A stretch of 34,405 bases of DNA from a virus (lineage: Duplodnaviria; Heunggongvirae; Uroviricota; Caudoviricetes), in IMG/VR virus record IMGVR_UViG_2639762844_000002, positions 1-34,405 of that record. One strand, given 5' to 3'. Below, piece by piece: positions 3,894 through 25,846 of the stretch (its first letter is position 1; each line of letters begins with the position of its first letter). The notes below the pieces were generated by a model. That model was not told where the DNA came from. It searched no databases and worked only from the letters and a program-made list of their open reading frames with translations. The translations under genes were made by a program, and so were the position numbers.

Positions 3894-4165
3894 GTATTCG
3901 TATTGAAATTGGCGAACGTTATGTCGTTACCAGTGACAGCTTTCAGTTTATTCTCCACGAGAAAAAGAGAGCGGAAAGCGGTAAAAACGCCGGTCAGGAA
4001 TGGCTGGCGGTGGTTGGTTATTACCCGAAATTAAGCCAGCTCGTTTCCGGCCTGATGCATCACGATATTCTGACCGGAAGCGCAAAGTCTTTTGCTGATT
4101 TAAACGCGCAGGTTGAGCAACTCAGCAAGCGTTGTTCAGAGGCTTTTGGCTCATATGGCCGTTAA
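3890..4165 (+). CDS. Hypothetical early protein (P2 orf83 position)
   Basis: 91 aa; start overlaps the upstream stop. Confidence 0.6.
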   Translation: MSIRIEIGERYVVTSDSFQFILHEKKRAESGKNAGQEWLAVVGYYPKLSQLVSGLMHHDILTGSAKSFADLNAQVEQLSKRCSEAFGSYGR

Positions 4166-6440
4166 AGCCTCCGGGCGTTTTGTCCCTCCGTCAGCATTTG
4201 CCGCAGGCACCGGTAAGACGTTTACCGGTGCTTATGCATGGAACGCGCCACGCGAGGCTGTCGGGCGCGAAAGACCCCTTACACGTGACGAGATGCGTCA
4301 GGTGCAAGGTGTTTTATCCACGATTAACCGCCTGCCTTACTTTTTGCGCTCGCTGTTTACTTCACGTTATGACTACATCCGGCGCAATAAAAGCCCGGTG
4401 CACGGGTTTTATTTCCTCACATCCACTTTTCAGCGTCGTTTATGGCCGCGCATTGAGCGTGTGAATCAGCGCCATGAAATGAACACCGACGCGTCGTTGC
4501 TGTTTCTGGCAGAGCGTGACCACTATGCGCGCCTGCCGGGAATGAATGACAAGGAGCTGAAAAAGTTTGCTGCCCGTATCTCATCGCAGCTTTTCATGAT
4601 GTATGAGGAACTCAGCGATGCCTGGGTGGATGCGCATGGCGAGAAAGAATCGCTGTTTACGGATGAGGCGCAGGCTCACCTCTATGGTCATGTTGCTGGC
4701 GCTGCACGTGCTTTCAATATTTCCCCGCTTTACTGGAAAAAATACCGTAAAGGACAGATGACCACGAGGCAGGCATATTCTGCAATTGCCCGTCTGTTTA
4801 ACGATGAGTGGTGGACTCATCAGCTTAAAGGCCAGCGTATGCGCTGGCATGAAGCGTTACTGATAGCTGTCGGGGAGGTCAATAAAGACCGTTCTCCTTA
4901 TGCCAGTAAACACGCCATTCGTGATGTGCGTGCGCGCCGCCAGGCAAATCTGGAATTTCTTAAATCGTGTGACCTTGAAAACAGGGAAACCGGCGAGCGC
5001 ATCGACCTTATCAGTAAGGTGATGGGCAGTATTTCTAATCCTGAAATTCGCCGGATGGAGCTGATGAACACCATTGCCGGTATTGAGCGTTACGCCGCCG
5101 CAGAGGGTGATGTGGGGATGTTTATCACGCTGACCGCGCCGTCAAAGTATCACCCGACACGTCAGGTCAGAAAAGGCGAAAGTAAAACCGTTCAGCTAAA
5201 TCACGGCTGGAACGATGAGGCATTTAATCCAAAGGATGCGCAGCGTTATCTCTGCCGCATCTGGAGCCTGATGCGCACGGCATTCAAGGATAATGATTTA
5301 CAGGTCTACGGTTTGCGTGTCGTCGAGCCACACCACGACGGAACGCCGCACTGGCATATGATGCTTTTTTGTAATCCACGCCAGCGTAACCAGATTATCG
5401 AAATCATGCGTCGCTACGCGCTCAAAGAGGATGGAGACGAAAGAGGAGCTGCGCGAAACCGTTTTCAGGCAAAGCACCTTAACCGGGGCGGTGCTGCGGG
5501 ATATATCGCGAAATACATTTCAAAAAATATCGACGGCTATGCACTGGATGGTCAGCTCGATAACGATACCGGTAAGCCGCTTAAAGATACTGCCGCGGCT
5601 GTTACCGCATGGGCGTCAACGTGGCGCATCCCGCAATTTAAAACGGTTGGCCTGCCGACAATGGGGGCTTACCGTGAACTACGCAAATTGCCGCGCGGCG
5701 TCAGCATTGCTGATGAGTTTGACGAGCGCGTCGAGGCTGCACGCGCCGCCGCAGACAGTGGTGATTTTGCGTTGTATATCAGCGCGCAGGGTGGGGCAAA
5801 TGTCCCGCGCGATTGTCAGACTGTCAGGGTCGCCCGTAGCCCGTCGGATGAAGTTAACGAGTACGAGGAAGAAGTCGAGAGAGTGGTCGGCATTTACGCG
5901 CCGCATCTCGGCGCGCGTCATATTCATATCACCAGAACGACGGACTGGCGCATTGTTCCGAAAGTTCCGGTCGTTGAGCCTTTGACTTTAAAAAGCGGCA
6001 TCGCCGCGCCTCGGAGTCCTGTCAATAACTGTGGAAAGCTCACCGGTGGTGATACTTCGTCACCGGCTCCCACGCCTTCTGAACACGCCGTAGCAGTGCT
6101 TAATCTGGTAGATGACGGTGTTATCGAATGGAATGACCAGGAGGTCGTGAGGGCGCTCAGAGGTGCATTAAAACACGGTCTGAGAAGACCAAACCGTCAG
6201 CAAAGAAACGGAAGCCCGTTAAAACCGCATGAAATAGCGCCATCGGCCAGACTGACCCGGTCGGAACGAATGCAAATTACCTGTATCCGCGTTGACCTTG
6301 CTCAGAACGGTATCAGGCCACAGCGATGGGAGCTTGAGGCGCTGGCTCGGGGAGCGACCATAAATTATGGCGGGAAAAAATTCACGTATCCGGTCATTGA
6401 TGAGTGGCCGGGATTCTCAACAGTAATGGAGTGGACATAA
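4155..6440 (+). CDS. A: Replication initiation endonuclease A (rolling-circle)
   Basis: 761 aa from the ATG at 4155, matching P2 A length. The track ORF extends to 4113 but that start overlaps orf83 by 53 nt. Confidence 0.9.
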   Translation: MAVKASGRFVPPSAFAAGTGKTFTGAYAWNAPREAVGRERPLTRDEMRQVQGVLSTINRLPYFLRSLFTSRYDYIRRNKSPVHGFYFLTSTFQRRLWPRIERVNQRHEMNTDASLLFLAERDHYARLPGMNDKELKKFAARISSQLFMMYEELSDAWVDAHGEKESLFTDEAQAHLYGHVAGAARAFNISPLYWKKYRKGQMTTRQAYSAIARLFNDEWWTHQLKGQRMRWHEALLIAVGEVNKDRSPYASKHAIRDVRARRQANLEFLKSCDLENRETGERIDLISKVMGSISNPEIRRMELMNTIAGIERYAAAEGDVGMFITLTAPSKYHPTRQVRKGESKTVQLNHGWNDEAFNPKDAQRYLCRIWSLMRTAFKDNDLQVYGLRVVEPHHDGTPHWHMMLFCNPRQRNQIIEIMRRYALKEDGDERGAARNRFQAKHLNRGGAAGYIAKYISKNIDGYALDGQLDNDTGKPLKDTAAAVTAWASTWRIPQFKTVGLPTMGAYRELRKLPRGVSIADEFDERVEAARAAADSGDFALYISAQGGANVPRDCQTVRVARSPSDEVNEYEEEVERVVGIYAPHLGARHIHITRTTDWRIVPKVPVVEPLTLKSGIAAPRSPVNNCGKLTGGDTSSPAPTPSEHAVAVLNLVDDGVIEWNDQEVVRALRGALKHGLRRPNRQQRNGSPLKPHEIAPSARLTRSERMQITCIRVDLAQNGIRPQRWELEALARGATINYGGKKFTYPVIDEWPGFSTVMEWT

Positions 6441-6593: not shown

Positions 6594-8432
6594 ATGAGCG
6601 AGTTTGATGTTTTTTCTATTTCAGTTGATGATTTTAAAAAAAGTGAATACGCCAGTATATTATCATCGCCAAGAAGTTATTCTCATTTTGATATGGAGTC
6701 TTATTTTGTTCAGTTGTTGTCATCTTACAAGCTAAAAAACGATGTAAGTTCTTGGCGGCTTTGCTATTTATTACGTGCGTTGTTTAATTTTAAATTTTCT
6801 AGGTCTGGTGATATTATCGGTTTTGAGCCAAAAATCATTCTCTATCCTGAGAGGGGCTATAGGCCTTCAGATTATAAGGAGAGTTTTTCAACAATATTAA
6901 CTTGTATTAAAGAAAACTCCGATAATCCTTATATTATATCTAGGGTGTGTGATGTTTTATGGATAAATAACCGTAAGGATATAGACTCTGCCAATAAAGC
7001 AATAGAGTCATATTCTCTAATGGTTAATGATGCTTGCGATACTTTAATAGAAAAACAAGAGTCAGGTGATATCCATATTTTTGATGTTGTTGACTGCTTG
7101 GATAGAGGTATCGCAATATCGCGCATGCTTATTGGCAGGAAAAAACAACTACAAGGGGGGATAGTTGATTCGACATTAAGGTTATATCATGTATTAATAG
7201 ACTCTGGTATATTCACCGGTGTATTAAGAGTTTCTGAAATTCTTTATAAGAATAATTTATTGTGTCCCTTGCAATTGGCTGAGAATGCAGAAAAGATAGC
7301 TGATGAGCATTGTGGAGCGTCTTATTTTGATGCAGTGAAAAAATTGTTTTATTTTGCGTCTGAATTATATGTTAAAAACGATATGGAAGAGCAAGGAAGA
7401 CGGTGCAGAATTAAAGCGTCAGAAATAACATTGGCTCAATTTGAACAGTCTTCATCTTCAATATTGAAGGCTCATTGGTTAAGAGTTGCTCTTGGCGAAT
7501 TTAGAGCAATTGGTGGAATGAATGAAGAAATTAAAAAGATTAGAGAGGAATTGAATTCTATTCGAGATCAAATCAATGATGAAATGCACTTCTTTGCAAT
7601 ACCAATGGATCTTAGTGATGTTATCGCTCAGAAAGAGCATGTTTATAATCAATTGGATTTCTCAAGGGTAATTAAAACTTTAATTGCTAGATTTAAGATT
7701 GTAAGTGCCAGTGAAATTATGGAAAGAGCTCGTTCCGATGCTAAAAAACATTTTTTTCTTAATATGAGTGAAACGGTTGTTTATGATGATAGAGGGCGCG
7801 TTGTAGCAAGTCGTTCACCTTTGGATCCTGCGGGGGATATAAGTTTAAATGATGCTTGTGCAAATTATTTAAGAACTAGTAACATTGAGCATCAGGTCTA
7901 TGTTTGTGGTGAGTTTGAAGTCGTTAGGCAAAGTGTGTTGGCTAGGTATTCATTAAATGAAAATACATTTGACCCAATCTCACAACAAAGTGCATTTGTT
8001 CCACCTGGGTATGCAGAAATATTTTCTTTGGGGTTTTATAAGCTTTGGCAGGGAGATTATGTGTCTGCCTGTTATTTGTTATTGCCGCAATTGGAGAATT
8101 CAATTAGATGGATTTTAGAATTAAGAAGAAAAGAAACAACGAAAATAGATGTGTCGCTTTTTGAGGAGGCTACTAGCCTATCTCAAATGCTTGCAAATTA
8201 TAGGAGTGAAATGGAAGGTGTTTTTGATAGTGATCATGTATTGACTATGGATTTATTGTTCAATATGAAAGGTGGTGCTGCAATTAGACACACGATGGCT
8301 CATGGCAGGTATACTGTAAATCATTGTTATCAACCAACTTCAGTTTTTGCCTGTGTCTTTATCTTTTATTTAACTTGTTTGCCTTTATTTAGTGTATGGG
8401 AAGATAAAGTTGAACCTTATCTGGCTGATTAA
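6594..8432 (+). CDS. Cargo protein of unknown function (612 aa) at the tin/old hotspot; candidate anti-phage defence protein
   Basis: Long ORF in an AT-rich block between A and cos. RBS aggtgagg. No Walker A (GxxxxGK[ST]) motif, unlike P2 Old. C-terminal hydrophobic stretch SVFACVFIFYLTCLPLFSVW. An R-x4-H motif (AIRHTMAHG) sits near the C-terminus. Confidence 0.8.
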   Translation: MSEFDVFSISVDDFKKSEYASILSSPRSYSHFDMESYFVQLLSSYKLKNDVSSWRLCYLLRALFNFKFSRSGDIIGFEPKIILYPERGYRPSDYKESFSTILTCIKENSDNPYIISRVCDVLWINNRKDIDSANKAIESYSLMVNDACDTLIEKQESGDIHIFDVVDCLDRGIAISRMLIGRKKQLQGGIVDSTLRLYHVLIDSGIFTGVLRVSEILYKNNLLCPLQLAENAEKIADEHCGASYFDAVKKLFYFASELYVKNDMEEQGRRCRIKASEITLAQFEQSSSSILKAHWLRVALGEFRAIGGMNEEIKKIREELNSIRDQINDEMHFFAIPMDLSDVIAQKEHVYNQLDFSRVIKTLIARFKIVSASEIMERARSDAKKHFFLNMSETVVYDDRGRVVASRSPLDPAGDISLNDACANYLRTSNIEHQVYVCGEFEVVRQSVLARYSLNENTFDPISQQSAFVPPGYAEIFSLGFYKLWQGDYVSACYLLLPQLENSIRWILELRRKETTKIDVSLFEEATSLSQMLANYRSEMEGVFDSDHVLTMDLLFNMKGGAAIRHTMAHGRYTVNHCYQPTSVFACVFIFYLTCLPLFSVWEDKVEPYLAD

Positions 8433-8593
8433 TGGAAGTTGATTTAGGTATTTTGGCATTTATCTTTCTGCGTGCAATATGTGCATGGTTTTGCATGTGC
8501 CGGAGTTGCATGTTCCGGCCGTGCGTCCGCCAGGACGGGCGTGGCTCAAAAGCGGTATTGCACCTGCATTAAAACCGCCCCACGAAGCGGGCG

Positions 8594-8612
8594 GGCGAGG
8601 CGGGGAAAGCAC
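8594..8612. other. cos site: 19-nt cohesive end ggcgaggcggggaaagcac
   Basis: Matches the P2 cohesive-end sequence as I recall it. Embedded in a GC-rich non-coding island (about 8470..8650) inside AT-rich cargo, upstream of Q as in P2. Confidence 0.6.
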
Positions 8613-8745
8613 TGCGCGCAATGATGTCAGTTTGAGGGCATCAGGCATGGGGACACTACACAGTTTCATTTTTGTTATTAATTGTTTATCATATAAGTGT
8701 TTGTTTTTTGAACGGCATGTCGTGTGCTATATGGAGTGAATAGAA

Positions 8746-9015
8746 GTGACTAAATTTGACAAAAAAAAAGCAATTTCTATTTTAACAGAAAAAAAAGCCT
8801 TGCTCCCATGTCATCGGTGTGGAAATTCAAAGTTCATCATTTTGGATGGCATATCATCACTTCCATTAATGGAAAATATGGAAATGATTGGTAGTATTGT
8901 TGTTGGCGGAATGAATGCTCCTGTATTACATGTGGCATGTGAGAATTGTGGTGCAGTTACTTCACATTTGCTTGGGGCACTTGGTTTAATGCCGGAGATT
9001 AAATCAAATGACTAA
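8746..9015 (+). CDS. Small four-Cys zinc-ribbon protein (89 aa), cargo
   Basis: GTG start with GGAG 10 nt upstream. CHRCG ... CENCG is a two-CxxC zinc ribbon. Overlaps the downstream gene by 8 nt. Confidence 0.6.
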   Translation: MTKFDKKKAISILTEKKALLPCHRCGNSKFIILDGISSLPLMENMEMIGSIVVGGMNAPVLHVACENCGAVTSHLLGALGLMPEIKSND

Positions 9016-9478
9016 GGATGTTTTTTTCTCTGATGAAGGTAGTGGTAAAAAAAGTGCTGTCTTGCATGGGGCGCAGGTTACAATAAACCCTGATTCGCAA
9101 TTTACAAAAAAGATAATTAGGCAGACTGAGGTTGATGTTATTGTGATAAGTGATGATAAACTTCATATAATTTTGACGAATTGCTTATCTAAAATTGCAT
9201 CATTAAACCGCTGGTCAACACCTTTGGGTATTTTAATTACCTTGGCGGTAACTATGTTAACCACAAATTTTAAGAATTTTATTCTTCAGGATTCTGTGTG
9301 GGAGGCTGTTTTCTGGATGCTTATTTTTTTTAATATTATCTGGTTGGTGAAAAACATTCCATATAGACACTTATTTTTAACTGTTTGTCATTCTATAGGG
9401 GTTCGTAAAGATAAAAAAAGAATTAGTGATGTATACCACATTATAGATATAATTAAACAAGGTGATACACGCTTTTGA
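9008..9478 (+). CDS. Small membrane protein with two predicted TM helices (156 aa), cargo
   Basis: Hydrophobic segments LGILITLAVTMLTT and VFWMLIFFNIIWLV. Translationally coupled to the zinc-ribbon gene. AT-rich. Confidence 0.65.
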   Translation: MTKDVFFSDEGSGKKSAVLHGAQVTINPDSQFTKKIIRQTEVDVIVISDDKLHIILTNCLSKIASLNRWSTPLGILITLAVTMLTTNFKNFILQDSVWEAVFWMLIFFNIIWLVKNIPYRHLFLTVCHSIGVRKDKKRISDVYHIIDIIKQGDTRF

Positions 9479-9511
9479 TTTAATATCAATATTTGATTGA
9501 GTATATAATAA

Positions 9512-9534
9512 AGCCGCCTGAGTTTATGGCGGCT
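9512..9534. terminator. Hairpin terminator (agccgcc-N9-ggcggct), effective on the minus strand
   Basis: Stem-loop followed by tttattatata on the minus strand, terminating the leftward Q-P operon. Also lies just after the plus-strand small genes. Confidence 0.5.
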
Positions 9535-9554
9535 AATATAGGGTGTGTGCTAAG

Positions 9555-10574
9555 TCATAATGTGTATTTGTTGAATCTAATTATTTCTTCGCCAACCCAT
9601 TCATTAAGGGCAATAAAGCGAGATTGAATAGGAGTAAGCTCATTGCGGACAAAGACCTTTGCCACTTTCTCAATATCACCCAGCGACCCGACGTTCTCCG
9701 GCTTGCCGCCCATCAACTGAAAGGGGATGCGGTGCGCGTCCAGCAGGTCAGCGGCGCTGGCTTTTTTGATATTAAAAAAATCGTCCTTCGTTGCCACTTC
9801 ACTGAGCGGGATAATTTTAATGCCGTCGGCTTTCCCTTGCGGGGCATAGAGAAACAAATTTTTAAAGTTGTTGCGGCCTTTCGACTTCACCATGTTTTCG
9901 CGAAGCATTTCGATATCGTTGCGATCCTGCACGGCATCGGTGACGTACATGATGTATCCGGCATGTGCGCCGTTTTCGTAATACTTGCGGCGGAACAGCG
10001 TGGCCGACTCATTCAGCCAGGCAGAGTTAAGGGCGCTGAGATATTCCGGCAGGCCGTACAGCTCCTGATTAATATCGGGCTCCAGCAGGTGAAACACGGA
10101 GCCGGGCGCGAAGGCTGTCGGCTCGTTGAAGGACGGCACCCACCAGTAAACATCCTCTTCCACGCCACGACGGGTATATTTTGCCGGTGAGGTTTCCAGT
10201 CTGATGACCTTACCGGTGGTGCTGTAGCGCTTTTCCAGAAACGCATTACCGAACACCAGAAAATCCAGCACAAAGCGGCTGAAATCCTGCTGGGAAAGCC
10301 ACGGGTGCGGGATAAACGTTGAAGCCAGAATATTACGTTTGACGTAAATCGGTGAGCTGTGATGCACGGCAGCACGCAGACTTTTTGCCAGACCGGTAAA
10401 GCTGACCGGCGGCTCATACCATCTGCCGTTACTGATGCATTCGACGTAATCCAGAATGTCACGGCGGTCGAGTACCGGCACCGGCTCACCAAAGGTGAAT
10501 GCCTCCATTTTCGGGGCGCTGGCGGTCATTTTTTTTGCCGCAGGTTGCGGTATTTTCCCTTTTTTCTTGCTCAT
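9555..10574 (-). CDS. Q: Portal protein
   Basis: 339 aa; position and length as P2 Q (capsid portal). The extreme C-terminal codons are AT-rich. Confidence 0.9.
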   Translation of the reverse strand: MSKKKGKIPQPAAKKMTASAPKMEAFTFGEPVPVLDRRDILDYVECISNGRWYEPPVSFTGLAKSLRAAVHHSSPIYVKRNILASTFIPHPWLSQQDFSRFVLDFLVFGNAFLEKRYSTTGKVIRLETSPAKYTRRGVEEDVYWWVPSFNEPTAFAPGSVFHLLEPDINQELYGLPEYLSALNSAWLNESATLFRRKYYENGAHAGYIMYVTDAVQDRNDIEMLRENMVKSKGRNNFKNLFLYAPQGKADGIKIIPLSEVATKDDFFNIKKASAADLLDAHRIPFQLMGGKPENVGSLGDIEKVAKVFVRNELTPIQSRFIALNEWVGEEIIRFNKYTL

Positions 10575-12346
10575 CAGTAAAACTCCAGAATGGTGGATGT
10601 CAGCGGGGTGCTGATACCGGCGGTGAGTGGCTCATTTAACAGGGCGTGCATGGTCGCCCAGGCGAGGTCGGCGTGGCTGGCTTCCTCGCTGCGGCTGGCC
10701 TCATAGGTGGCGCTGCGTCCGCTGCTGGTCATGGTCTTGCGGATAGCCATAAACGAGCTGGTGATGTCGGTGGCGCTGACGTCATATTCCAGACAGCCAC
10801 GGCGGATAACGTCTTTTGCCTTGAGCACCATTGCGGTTTTCATTTCCGGCGTGTAGCGGATATCGCGCGCGGCGGGATAGAACGAGCGCACGAGCTGGAA
10901 CACGCCGACACCGAGGCCGGTGGCATCAATCCCGATGTATTCAACGTTATATTTTTCGGTGAGTTTGCGGATGGATTCCGCCTGGGTGGCAAAGTCCATG
11001 CCTTTCCACTGGTGACGCTCAAGTATTCTGAATTTGCCACCGGCCACCACCGGCGGTGCCAGCACCACGCATCCGGCGCTGTCGCCACGGTGTGACGGGT
11101 CGTAACCAATCCATACCGGGCGGGAGCCGAACGGATTGGCGGCAAACGGCGCATAGTCTTCCCATTCTTCCAGCGTGTCGACCATGCAGCGTTGCAGCTC
11201 CTCGAACGGGAACACCGACGCCTTGTCGTCAACAAATTCACACATGAACAGGTTTTTAAAATCGTCGGCGCTGTTTTCACGTTTGAGCTGCTCAATGTCG
11301 AACAGCGTGCAGCCACCTTTCAGGGCGTCCTCAATGGTGACAATCTGCCGCCACTGGCCGTCCGCACAGAGAAGCCCACCGGCAAGGGCGTTATGACTGA
11401 CGTCGATTTCCACGCGTTCGGCGGCGCTGGCGCGTCCCCGGTTGAACAGTTCACCTGACCAGAACGGGTAGGCGTCGTGCGCCAGCGTGGACGGGGTGGA
11501 GAAATAGGTCGAACGCAGGTGACTCTGTGAGGCCATACCTGATGCCACCTTACGCAGTACCTGAAAATTCGGGATCCAGAAAATCTCGTCGACGTACAGG
11601 TCGCCGTTATGGCTCTGTGCGGTGTTGGAGTTGGTGCCGAGAAAAATTAGTTTTGCGCCGTTATTGCCCAGGACAATCGGGTCACCGGTCAGGTCAACGT
11701 CAACCAGACGGGCAAAGGCGATGATGTATTCGCGGAACACATACGCCTGCGTTTTACTGGCCGACAGAAAAATCTGGTTATGACCGGTTTTCAGGGCGCG
11801 CAGCAGCGCCTCGCGGGAAAAATAAAACGTCGCGCCAATCTGGCGGGATTTCAGGATATCGCGGATGCGGTGCTCAAGCCCGGCGCGATACCAGTGCAAC
11901 TGATATTCGAAAGACTGCTCAAAGAAAATCTGCTCCAGCTTTTCGATGGCCTCGTCACTGAAAAAATTCTTTTTCGGTTTGCGACGCCCGCCTTTGTTGC
12001 GGTTAGCGACGTTCGGATTAAGGTCTGCCTCGTTGCCGGTCTGACTGTAGCGGTTGACCCGCGCCAGTCGTTCAATCTGGCGTCCCAGCAGGTCAATTTC
12101 CTTGAAGTCACCGCCGGTTTTCTGCGGTTTGATGATGAGCTGGGTCAGTCGCGCTTCCAGACTCATTTCGACACGGCTGATGGGGGCAACGCTGTCCCAG
12201 CCGTCGCGCTGTTTCCAGCTCTGCACCGTCGGGCGTTTCATCTGCAACATGGCGGCAATCTGCGGCACGGAAAATCCCTGCCAGTACAGCAGCGCCGCCT
12301 GACGACGCGGGTCGTGTAAAAGAGTGGTGTCTGTGGTGATGGTCAT
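10574..12346 (-). CDS. P: Terminase large subunit (ATPase)
   Basis: 590 aa from the ATG at 12346 (RBS ggcgagg), equal to P2 P length. The track ORF extends to a TTG at 12376. Confidence 0.9.
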   Translation of the reverse strand: MTITTDTTLLHDPRRQAALLYWQGFSVPQIAAMLQMKRPTVQSWKQRDGWDSVAPISRVEMSLEARLTQLIIKPQKTGGDFKEIDLLGRQIERLARVNRYSQTGNEADLNPNVANRNKGGRRKPKKNFFSDEAIEKLEQIFFEQSFEYQLHWYRAGLEHRIRDILKSRQIGATFYFSREALLRALKTGHNQIFLSASKTQAYVFREYIIAFARLVDVDLTGDPIVLGNNGAKLIFLGTNSNTAQSHNGDLYVDEIFWIPNFQVLRKVASGMASQSHLRSTYFSTPSTLAHDAYPFWSGELFNRGRASAAERVEIDVSHNALAGGLLCADGQWRQIVTIEDALKGGCTLFDIEQLKRENSADDFKNLFMCEFVDDKASVFPFEELQRCMVDTLEEWEDYAPFAANPFGSRPVWIGYDPSHRGDSAGCVVLAPPVVAGGKFRILERHQWKGMDFATQAESIRKLTEKYNVEYIGIDATGLGVGVFQLVRSFYPAARDIRYTPEMKTAMVLKAKDVIRRGCLEYDVSATDITSSFMAIRKTMTSSGRSATYEASRSEEASHADLAWATMHALLNEPLTAGISTPLTSTILEFY

Positions 12347-18275: not shown

Positions 18276-18726
18276 GTTTAAGCGTTTTGAAGACCGGCTG
18301 ACCGGACTTATTGAATCGCTGTCACCGTCAGGGCGTCGGCGACTGGCGGTAGATATTGCGAAGAAACTGCGCCAGCGCCAGCAGCAGCGAATTAAATTAC
18401 AAAAAGCCCCGGATGGTACGCCGTATATACCGAGAAAAAACCAGCCAGTGCGAAATAAGAAAGGCCGGATAAAGCGGGAAATGTTTGCGAAATTACGCAC
18501 AAACCGATTTATGAAAGCAACAGGTAGCGAGAGTGCGGCTGTGGTGGAGTTTGCCAGCGGAGTACAACGAATTGCGAGAGTACATCAATTAGGGCTTAGG
18601 GATAAGCCGGGGCGTAATAGTGCTGTGGTGGAATATCCTGTTCGTGAGTTATTAGGTTTTGACAAGGAATCTATACAATTGATAGAAAAGGAGTTATTAG
18701 TGATTCTATCGAAAGATGTTATATGA
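18268..18726 (+). CDS. S: Tail completion protein S (3' end recoded AT-rich)
   Basis: 152 aa. The N-terminal two thirds are GC-typical; composition turns AT-rich from about 18590. Confidence 0.85.
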   Translation: MNEFKRFEDRLTGLIESLSPSGRRRLAVDIAKKLRQRQQQRIKLQKAPDGTPYIPRKNQPVRNKKGRIKREMFAKLRTNRFMKATGSESAAVVEFASGVQRIARVHQLGLRDKPGRNSAVVEYPVRELLGFDKESIQLIEKELLVILSKDVI

Positions 18727-19478
18727 GATGGGTGTTTGTGGATAAAAAATTTTCCATTTTGAGAAAAAGAGTAAAGCATTCTCAAAAGAAAGTTATGGAT
18801 TGTATTATTGCTGACCATAATGCTGATGTATGTGTGTTATGCGGGAGTTCTGACGATATTACTCGTGAGCACATTATTCCTCAGTGGGCCTTTGAGTCAA
18901 ATGCTGAAAAACTTTTAATTAATAAAAAGAATAATCAGTCAACTCATTACATCAAAGCCACTGTACCAGCATGCAGAGTGTGCAATTCTGATTTGCTGGG
19001 AGCGTTTGAGTATAACCTGAAGAAATTTCTTACGGAAAAGAGGGGCGATGAGTTAACAGATTATGAATATGATTGCATCATATGGTGGTTGCAATACATG
19101 GGCTTTAAGTTGCAATTAATGGATTTACGGACCCGCTTTCTCAGGTATAAAGGGGGGGATTATATCCCTTTCCTTGCAAACTTCCCGGTTGCAATGTTTT
19201 GGGGGAATGTCGATACGACACCGGAGGATGTCTTCAGGATTATAAGAAAATCGCGACGCAATCTGATGTCGAAATGGAAGGATAAAAAACATAATTCTTT
19301 GATGGTTTTTGAAACATCAAACAAGAGTTTTCATTTCTTTCATAAGGTTGATGAATTTATTTTTATTGAAATGCCTCAGGTTAAGAAGGCGTTTTTCTTC
19401 TTTTTTAATAAAGAATTTGACAGCCATGATTTAGCTCATGAGGAGTGTATGAAGATTATAGAGAAGTGCTACAACTAA
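18723..19478 (+). CDS. HNH-motif nuclease-domain protein (251 aa), cargo inserted between S and V
   Basis: CVLCGSSDDITREHIIPQW ... CRVCNSDL fits the HNH signature (CxxC-EHIxP-N-CxxCN). AT-rich. Start overlaps the S stop (ATGA). Confidence 0.8.
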   Translation: MRWVFVDKKFSILRKRVKHSQKKVMDCIIADHNADVCVLCGSSDDITREHIIPQWAFESNAEKLLINKKNNQSTHYIKATVPACRVCNSDLLGAFEYNLKKFLTEKRGDELTDYEYDCIIWWLQYMGFKLQLMDLRTRFLRYKGGDYIPFLANFPVAMFWGNVDTTPEDVFRIIRKSRRNLMSKWKDKKHNSLMVFETSNKSFHFFHKVDEFIFIEMPQVKKAFFFFFNKEFDSHDLAHEECMKIIEKCYN

Positions 19479-24805: not shown

Positions 24806-25846
24806 TCAGTATAAATTTAACCCAAGCTTACTAATTTCTTTTCTACGCATTCCAAAAATAACATCACCACTTCTAGAAATGAATGAAGCAATGCGTCGGT
24901 CATTGTCATCTACACCTTCCCAGAAGAAAGGGACATTATTGTTCATCAGACTTTCTGCAAAGGTTAAATGTGTTAACGCCAAGAAAATTCTAACAAAATT
25001 AGATGGCTCATTGAAATCCTGATTCAGCAAATGTAGTGTCAAATGTCTATTGAAGCTACCTTCATTAACACCTCCAGTTGGTTTATATATGACATTTTTA
25101 AAAAAAGATCTGGTTGAATTCATCACATCACACTGGGGGTTTAAATGTGTGAAAAAATCCACCTCAGTTTCAATGTCATAACCTTTGCCGGGATGCCAGT
25201 CAAAATTTGGGAGCTGCCGTCTTCCCCATGTAATAATGAGTTTTCTAATTTCCTTTTCAAATCTGTCTGCACTTGTATTTGTGTTGTCACCATCACAAAA
25301 TTTTACAAGTAAGTTCCTCAATCCACCTTCAAAGACAGGGAAGAGCGACATTATAGATATATGATCATACCCCAAATAAAAAGCTTCTATAGCTTCAAAA
25401 ATAATTGTCTTGTAGTTTTTTAGTGATTCGCTCTTTATAAAGTATTTGTTGAAGTAAGCAATTGCAATTTCTAATGAGAAATTTTCGAATAACCATTTAT
25501 TTGAATTATTAAGCGGATTTTCACTTCTTTTAATTTCATGGATTGCAGAAGAAAGAGTGCCTTCTCCAATATATAGGGGTAATGCTATACCAAGTGAATT
25601 TGCATGCGACTGAATATTCGAACATCGTCCCCAATGTCTATTTAAGTACGATATTGGCCTTTCGGTAAGCAAGAAGTTTAAATCATCAATTTTAACTGTG
25701 AAAGAAGCATAACAAAGTTCACTTTTTGAGATTACTGGTTCTACGCTATGATTTCTCCTGAATTGATTTAGAATTTCATTCTCAGAGAGTTTGTCTAATT
25801 TTGATAAGCGTTTCAAAGTTGGCAGGAATTTTTCTAAATCTGACAT
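24806..25846 (-). CDS. Cargo protein of unknown function (346 aa) at the Z/fun locus; candidate anti-phage or exclusion protein
   Basis: AT-rich ORF on the strand opposite the late genes, between G and FI where P2 carries Z/fun. Own AT-rich upstream region. No recognisable motif. Confidence 0.8.
   Translation of the reverse strand: MSDLEKFLPTLKRLSKLDKLSENEILNQFRRNHSVEPVISKSELCYASFTVKIDDLNFLLTERPISYLNRHWGRCSNIQSHANSLGIALPLYIGEGTLSSAIHEIKRSENPLNNSNKWLFENFSLEIAIAYFNKYFIKSESLKNYKTIIFEAIEAFYLGYDHISIMSLFPVFEGGLRNLLVKFCDGDNTNTSADRFEKEIRKLIITWGRRQLPNFDWHPGKGYDIETEVDFFTHLNPQCDVMNSTRSFFKNVIYKPTGGVNEGSFNRHLTLHLLNQDFNEPSNFVRIFLALTHLTFAESLMNNNVPFFWEGVDDNDRRIASFISRSGDVIFGMRRKEISKLGLNLY

Follow-up and report, generated by a model that had tools for sequence, protein, structure and literature searches.

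A coupled zinc-ribbon and two-helix membrane protein gene pair beside cos of a P2-like prophage: a conserved mobile cassette, probably a defence or toxin-antitoxin-like module

We found that two small, overlapping genes lying between cos and the portal gene Q of a P2-like prophage, ORF1 (a zinc-ribbon protein) and ORF2 (a protein with two transmembrane (TM) helices), form a conserved mobile cassette that is probably a defence or toxin-antitoxin (TA)-like module, as judged by comparison of their sequences and surroundings. The prophage lies in the window, i.e., the whole 34,405-nt stretch of DNA that was analyzed. In our main reading, to which we give a probability of roughly one half, the two genes make up a conflict module that is autonomous and horizontally mobile; ORF2 would be the membrane effector and ORF1 its small cytoplasmic regulator or sensor. 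The support for this reading comes from the reality of both genes, their coupling, their co-conservation across phyla, the swapping of one partner, and the movement of the pair among prophage hotspots, plasmids and defence islands. The hotspot was already known, and the two genes together with a third were already listed in a published supplementary table as hypotheticals; new from the present sequence comparison are the wide distribution of the pair across phyla, its strict coupling, and an alternative DUF6864 partner.

The cassette between cos and Q

The window is 100% identical to the chromosome of E. coli ECC-1470 (NZ_CP010344) and contains a complete P2-like prophage adjoining yegR, in which the P2 cohesive-end 19-mer is matched exactly at 8594-8612. 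A BLAST comparison with the joined P2 ends confines the P2 homology around cos to a core of 55 nt with 96% identity (Table 1); homology restarts at 9631, which corresponds to P2 nt 279, at codon ~314 of Q. Thus 1,011 bp of DNA, with an overall GC content of 34% (range 0.30-0.37), stand in for ~250 bp of P2. The distance from cos to the Q stop is 942 nt in the window and 167 nt according to the P2 annotation, so that a first, sequence-only reading, which had placed P2 Q within ~100 bp of cos and put the separation here at ~0.85 kb, underestimated both distances. The same reading had called overlapping genes for an 89-aa protein with two CxxC pairs and a 156-aa protein with two TM helices, and in this it was right to the nucleotide: the two frames share 8 nt (ATGACTAA), and both helices are recovered by hydropathy and in the AF2 model.

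Table 1. Features of the cos-Q interval, numbered from the first nucleotide of the window.
Feature	Coordinates	Strand	Remarks
Core cos region	8565-8619	.	Sole P2-homologous DNA between two cargo slots; BLAST, 19-mer, P2 annotation
AT-rich cassette leader	8620-8745	+	Starts 7 nt past cos; GGAG Shine-Dalgarno at 8733-8736
ORF1, zinc-ribbon protein	8746-9015	+	89 aa
ORF1 homopolymer tracts	8761-8796	+	A9 at 8761-8769, A8 at 8789-8796; natural length variants
ORF2, 2TM protein	9008-9478	+	156 aa
GC hairpin	9512-9534	.	7-bp stem, AGCCGCC-N9-GGCGGCT; between convergent ORF2 and Q
Foreign AT-rich Q 3' end	9555-9630	-	Right recombination junction at ~9630/9631

The GC hairpin folds at -13.6 kcal/mol (z = -4.4, minus strand) and probably ends transcription of both the Q/P operon and the cassette, as a positional analogue of P2 tQ. 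Upstream of ORF1, a scan for sigma-70 consensus promoters gave nothing convincing and none above background. No direct or inverted repeats of note were found in the cassette flanks, on which ground a transposon-like insertion was rejected, and an antisense or cis-regulatory RNA in the cassette was likewise rejected, as no Rfam family matched.

How the cassette arrived is indicated by the 3' end of Q. The last ~25-26 codons are a diverged homologue of the P2 tail, and Q is shorter by 5 codons. The cassette is present in 8 of 5,426 complete E. coli genomes, and the Q-tail variant occurs in exactly the same 8, indicating that both came in together by recombination. The earlier proposal that the AT-rich tail came with the cassette by recombination therefore holds, while its description of the tail as recoded does not, the end of Q having been swapped for a diverged homologous segment. 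A search of the phage collection for a donor of this segment gave nothing, even with low-stringency settings. The cassette is missing from every P2-like phage record that matches the flanks, and these records keep the canonical short cos-Q spacing. This absence and the rarity of the cassette in E. coli support the view that the pair was inserted as accessory cargo and does not belong to the P2 core genes.

The defence hotspot of P2 has been defined as the entire gpA-gpQ interval next to cos (Rousset et al. 2022, PMC9122126), and later work keeps the same definition. With gpA at 4155-6440 and Q at 9555-10574, ORF1 and ORF2 lie within this interval, and they vary between close relatives (absent from the matched phages, present in 8/5,426 E. 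coli genomes), as hotspot cargo does. The insertion site had been thought unusual. The short cos-Q spacing of the matched phages speaks for this, but the interval is the published hotspot, a second P2-like phage has a known defence gene, bSEFIR, between cos and Q, and Table S5A of the hotspot study lists the exact trio WP_001288417 + WP_087891114 + WP_023567683, as three hypotheticals (PMC9122126). The pair is not among the systems curated or tested there (Rousset 2022, PMC9122126), and we rejected its identity with the validated three-gene "three hypothetical proteins" (3HP) system, since the protein starts and conserved motifs are absent from the tested-systems table.

Both flanks of cos have been replaced up to the 55-bp core, and the Q-side cargo starts after TGCGCGC. 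This suggests that both flanks of a minimal cos are recombination-tolerant cargo slots. The cassette junction, 7 nt past cos and directly after this heptamer, is the junction found in P4 satellite hotspot sequences (Rousset Table S2A), so the flank used by the pair is positioned like the P4 satellite hotspot. That both sides of the core cos in P2-like phages accept cargo is missed by analyses that treat gpA-gpQ as a whole interval.

On the A side of cos, in the old/tin slot, lies an AT-rich gene (6594-8432, + strand) for a 612-aa protein that matches DUF7380 (PF24098) and the PADLOC candidate PDC-S39 (E 2e-68). This gene and the pair are all adjacent, AT-rich and co-oriented, and they appear as one arrangement in Rousset Table S5A (PMC9122126), as would be expected if the three formed a single system spanning cos. 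We consider such a system very improbable, and essentially refuted by independent assortment. The 612-aa gene was catalogued as a single-gene system (system 55, "DUF4209") with 76 occurrences, also with other partners (Rousset 2022, PMC9122126); the conserved cos core lies between it and the pair; and in Klebsiella, Shewanella, plasmids and other settings the pair has no DUF7380 gene with it. In E. coli GF4 (L041, NZ_CP172217, 422-8242), a decayed P2-like prophage whose truncated portal is joined to the ogr region, most of Q is lost and the pair is still intact, accompanied by a 440-aa HEPN-annotated protein that replaces DUF7380. Thus the company that DUF7380 keeps elsewhere, and that of the pair in GF4, indicate that the zinc-ribbon/2TM pair is a module of its own.

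The prophage has four AT-rich cargo islands in total. One holds an ORF of 246-251 aa (18723-19478, + strand, GC ~0.38) between tail genes S and V, which is the P2 orf30 slot and the slot that holds the zinc-ribbon/2TM pair in Klebsiella P2-like prophages. Another holds a 346-aa ORF (24806-25846, - strand, GC ~0.33) among the tail genes on the opposite strand, apparently in the Z/fun slot. Neither ORF has a Pfam or PADLOC match.

The two proteins and their coupling

Both ORF1 and ORF2 are annotated by PGAP. ORF1 has a GTG start with GGAG 9 nt upstream, and its two cysteine pairs are C22xxC25 and C65xxC68. The family shares the invariant signature PCHRCG...CxNCGAxTxHxLG with an N-terminal helix before it, and the AF2 model of ORF1 (pLDDT 78.8) contains a helix at residues 6-15 and three strands. 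The protein is predicted to be cytoplasmic. Its best Pfam match is the Lar-type model PF14354, with 17.8 bits against a gathering threshold of 28.6 and the model aligned only partly; TIGR03655 gave no match, so ORF1 falls outside the Lar family as delimited by the curated thresholds. The best PDB profile match, to the RpoM-2 zinc ribbon, is not significant (E 0.013), and we found no recognizable DNA-binding or autoregulatory domain in ORF1.

ORF2 has an ATG start and TM helices at residues ~69-87 and ~97-116. The sequence is rich in K and R on both sides of the helices, which are joined by a 9-residue loop, and an N-in/C-in topology is therefore predicted, in what we predict to be an inner-membrane protein. 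In order, it comprises a conserved cytoplasmic juxtamembrane motif (residues 32-68), TM1, the short loop, TM2 and a basic C-terminal tail; the residues conserved in the family are F32, I45, I47, D50-K51-L52 and I55-L56, followed by W69/P72, which open TM1. In the AF2 model (pLDDT 62.9) the helices form a hairpin and the N-terminus is disordered. A structure search with this model matched generic helices alone, and fold searches were uninformative for both proteins.

Class II holins have two TM helices with both termini inside, and the predicted topology of ORF2 resembles theirs. A role outside conflict, as a holin/antiholin-like timer of lysis or as a small membrane regulator of benefit to phage or host, might thus be considered, and in Arthrobacter phage Shoya hydrolase and esterase genes come immediately before the pair. 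We regard such a role as quite improbable. Holins of this class sit in a lysis cassette beside the endolysin, whereas the holin, endolysin and spanin genes of the window prophage form a complete lysis cassette elsewhere (holin family protein, GH24 glycoside hydrolase, LysB, LysC); at the plasmid and chromosomal loci there is no lysin gene among the annotated or called neighbours; the 68-aa cytoplasmic N-terminal region is atypical for holins; and the pair is rare and patchy, at 8/5,426 genomes.

Database searches placed neither protein in a family of known function. No Pfam, NCBIfam, PADLOC 2.0 or PDB family matched ORF1 or ORF2 beyond sub-threshold zinc-ribbon and TM noise, and a PHROGs scan returned phrog_32870, of unknown function. 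PADLOC-DB 2.0, which covers RexAB, Kiwa, gop-beta-cII, hydrolase-TM, PD-T4/T7/lambda, PDC and others, gave no match to either protein at E≤1. When distant homologues (two of the ORF2 family, one of the ORF1 family and two DUF6864 proteins) were scanned in the same way, four had no match at E≤0.1, and one ORF2 homologue (L038) had sub-significant matches to KwaA (E 0.0099) and CorA (E 0.083). As for the SLATT/CBASS-type 2TM effectors, which go with an enzyme that makes a nucleotide signal, SLATT models were not among the Pfam matches at E≤1, and the genes beside ORF2 homologues encode zinc-ribbon or DUF6864 proteins, not cyclases. The pair showed no homology to validated families of defence, TA or holin proteins, and a literature search on DUF6864, PF21732, PF27874 (the precomputed Pfam label on two ORF2 homologues) and zinc-ribbon + TM defence pairs returned nothing relevant.

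Are two such small ORFs real genes? In comparisons with homologues from Klebsiella, Proteus, Serratia and plasmids, pN is 0.14-0.30 and pS 0.67-0.85, with Ka/Ks of 0.11-0.16 for ORF1 and ORF2 where it could be computed. This purifying selection, together with the retention of the pair in dozens of loci, indicates that ORF1 and ORF2 are not chance ORFs. Close relatives were few in direct searches with the two proteins (12 and 9 clusters), while profile searches reached 1,295 representative proteins for the ORF1 family (exhaustive search, E≤1e-3) and 298 clusters for ORF2.

More than 40 distinct loci carry the two genes as a unit coupled in translation. In 40 of 43 distinct pairs, the genes overlap by 4-14 nt and a purine-rich Shine-Dalgarno sequence lies within ORF1. 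Loci seeded with ORF2 always have a small same-strand gene directly upstream, usually an ORF1 homologue; conversely, metagenome loci seeded with ORF1 have an ORF2 homologue directly downstream in 23/26 cases, the remaining three being one different small 2TM protein, one contig end and one orphan. In five loci (Bacteroidota, Leptospira and one viral contig), what is coupled to the ORF2-family gene encodes not a zinc ribbon but DUF6864, a Cys-free protein of ~120 aa. These pairs retain the same ORF2-family protein and the same overlapping coupling to the upstream gene, and differ in the upstream partner. Thus ORF2 is the constant part of the module, and its small cytoplasmic partner is exchangeable.

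This gene order, two small co-directional and overlapping genes with the small partner first and the putative effector second, coupled in translation, is that of type II TA loci. The pair might accordingly be a classical addiction module with no dedicated anti-phage role, in which ORF2 would act as membrane toxin and ORF1 as labile antitoxin, and the pair would stabilize the prophage or plasmid that bears it. In the loci found, ORF2-family genes never occur without a coupled upstream gene, whereas ORF1-like orphans exist. We nevertheless hold this explanation to be unlikely. The pair has no homology to type II TA systems and no match to any TA family, and ORF1 has no recognizable domain of the DNA-binding or autoregulatory kind that antitoxins carry. 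Natural variation in the two homopolymer tracts, which lie in the first 17 codons of ORF1, also bears on the question. In E. coli TK3889 the first tract has shortened from A9 to A8 (A8/A8), so that ORF1 is frameshifted and truncated while ORF2 is intact, a state that a strict antitoxin model predicts to be lethal. The allele speaks weakly against a simple antitoxin role; the frameshift may instead be a homopolymer sequencing or assembly error, or ORF2 may be silenced by the broken translational coupling. Another sequence (P0014) implies an in-frame A7/A7 allele with an ORF1 of 88 aa. The tract variants could reflect phase variation or errors of long-read assembly.

Two side observations concern the zinc-ribbon partner. 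A zinc-ribbon homologue at L073 785-1078 has an unrelated small 2TM protein as its coupled partner, and at L012 6250-6696 another is followed 4 nt downstream by a GNAT acetyltransferase; the zinc-ribbon module may work with effectors of more than one type.

Genomic company of the pair

The mobility of the pair is shown by where it is found. Besides the cos-Q slot of the E. coli P2-like prophage in the window, it lies between gpV and gpS, in the P2 orf30 slot and on the opposite strand, in Klebsiella P2-like prophages, and between gpA and cos in the IMG/VR P2-like phage IMGVR_UViG_2563366845_000004 (L026). In the latter the cos-Q slot is taken by the bSEFIR gene (9148-10584; PADLOC E 5e-104), so that the layout is a mirror image of that in the window. 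A Shewanella prophage carries the pair at its end, adjoining smpB, and in Arthrobacter phage Shoya (MN908684) it is encoded by gp27/gp28, between lysis-type genes and the integrase gene. The start of Shoya gp27 (L047 3010-3399) appears to be mis-annotated, since the open frame extends upstream; the full-length frame regains the first zinc knuckle, RPCYRCG, and gp27/gp28 is then a full homologue of the pair.

Outside phages, the pair is found directly after rep on a complete 4.6-kb Col-type plasmid of K. pneumoniae, and as cargo on a 6.4-kb MobC/relaxase plasmid and on an integrase/Rep_trans element. It stands beside HEPN_AbiU2 on a short metagenomic (ENA) contig, beside HicB on a viral contig, and in an Alteromonas island together with IS110, NERD-UvrD, ParE, CcdB and RelE. 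We scanned with PADLOC the 139 ORFs that lie within 3.5 kb of the pair at 28 non-P2 loci. In this raw tally, taken without a background rate, strong matches were to AbiEi/AbiEii, a type IIG RM enzyme, a second bSEFIR, PD-T4-6, a NERD+UvrD candidate and several MADS components. At many non-phage loci the genes around the pair are ordinary housekeeping genes.

This company strongly suggests that the pair is a conflict module of the defence, exclusion or TA type, and on this point the sequence-only reading, which had named the same classes, is upheld by the comparison of loci. Which of these classes applies is less clear from location. The pair is the main cargo of two tiny mobilizable plasmids and occurs in TA-rich islands, as an addiction module would; its repeated siting in phage defence hotspots by known defence genes fits defence at least equally, and the two roles are compatible.

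Location bears likewise on superinfection exclusion, in which ORF2, aided by ORF1, would block DNA entry or another early step at the membrane and the cell would survive. Sie/Imm-type proteins are prophage-borne inner-membrane proteins, and by analogy ORF2 could be one of them. The pair lies in regions of several temperate phages that are expressed during lysogeny, and ORF2 is tolerated beside the frameshifted ORF1 of TK3889. We judge exclusion improbable, because the pair is also carried by small plasmids and non-phage chromosomal islands, because strict reliance on a cytoplasmic partner for which DUF6864 can substitute points rather to sensor-effector or TA logic, and because no homology to known Sie proteins was found.

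Possible mode of action and relation to known systems

If the pair is a two-gene conflict module, how might it work? We infer from the sequences an interaction between the two proteins, the toxicity of ORF2, a trigger and a protective phenotype, which could be connected as follows. ORF1 would be made in a fixed ratio with ORF2 through translational coupling, and would bind the conserved cytoplasmic juxtamembrane segment of ORF2, holding it inactive. An infection cue, or the loss of ORF1, would then release ORF2, ORF1 being either a sensor that frees the effector on infection or a labile antidote. Freed ORF2 would oligomerize and make the membrane leaky, so that phage replication is aborted. 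On small plasmids, the same action of ORF2 would kill cells that lose the plasmid, making post-segregational killing possible.

RexA and RexB of phage lambda, both encoded by the prophage, form a system of two genes in which a cytoplasmic protein is paired with an inner-membrane effector, and this effector depolarizes the cell on infection. For the present pair this system can serve as a working analogy only: there is no sequence similarity and no PADLOC match at E≤1, RexA is large, and RexB has four TM helices. A second likeness is to gop-beta-cII of P4, which is also cargo immediately past cos plus TGCGCGC; one of its products, the 2-TM protein Gop, is toxic if the partner is missing. Unlike our pair, the P4 system has three genes, no zinc ribbon and a Gop whose TM helices are N-terminal, and the pair has no match to the PADLOC gop-beta-cII model. 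The P2 gpA-gpQ (old/tin) hotspot cargo shares with the pair the interval, the AT-richness and the variation between close relatives; old/tin lies on the A side of cos, in contrast to the Q side used by the pair, which is also found in other slots and outside phages. Lar-type phage zinc ribbons (PF14354) are small CxxC...CxxC proteins like ORF1, but have no membrane partner.

More tentatively, at something like one chance in three, the pair may represent a new and widespread family of two-component, membrane-acting abortive-infection systems, composed of a conserved 2TM effector and interchangeable sensors (zinc ribbon or DUF6864), which is missing from present defence catalogues and spans Proteobacteria, Bacteroidota, Myxococcota, Spirochaetes and an actinobacteriophage. 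Should the pair work in defence or addiction, it would extend the immune or TA repertoire of bacteria by a family that is so far unannotated. If the proposed action is true, the pair, being compact (0.73 kb), widespread and swappable in its partners, would offer a simple model of how small cytoplasmic proteins gate a membrane effector. The two HMM-ready alignments could enter defence-annotation tools once a phenotype is shown.

One ORF2 homologue departs from the common architecture. At L066 3182-4414, the reading frame runs on without a stop into a C-terminal extension of ~260 aa of unknown fold, possibly an effector fusion or a missed gene boundary.
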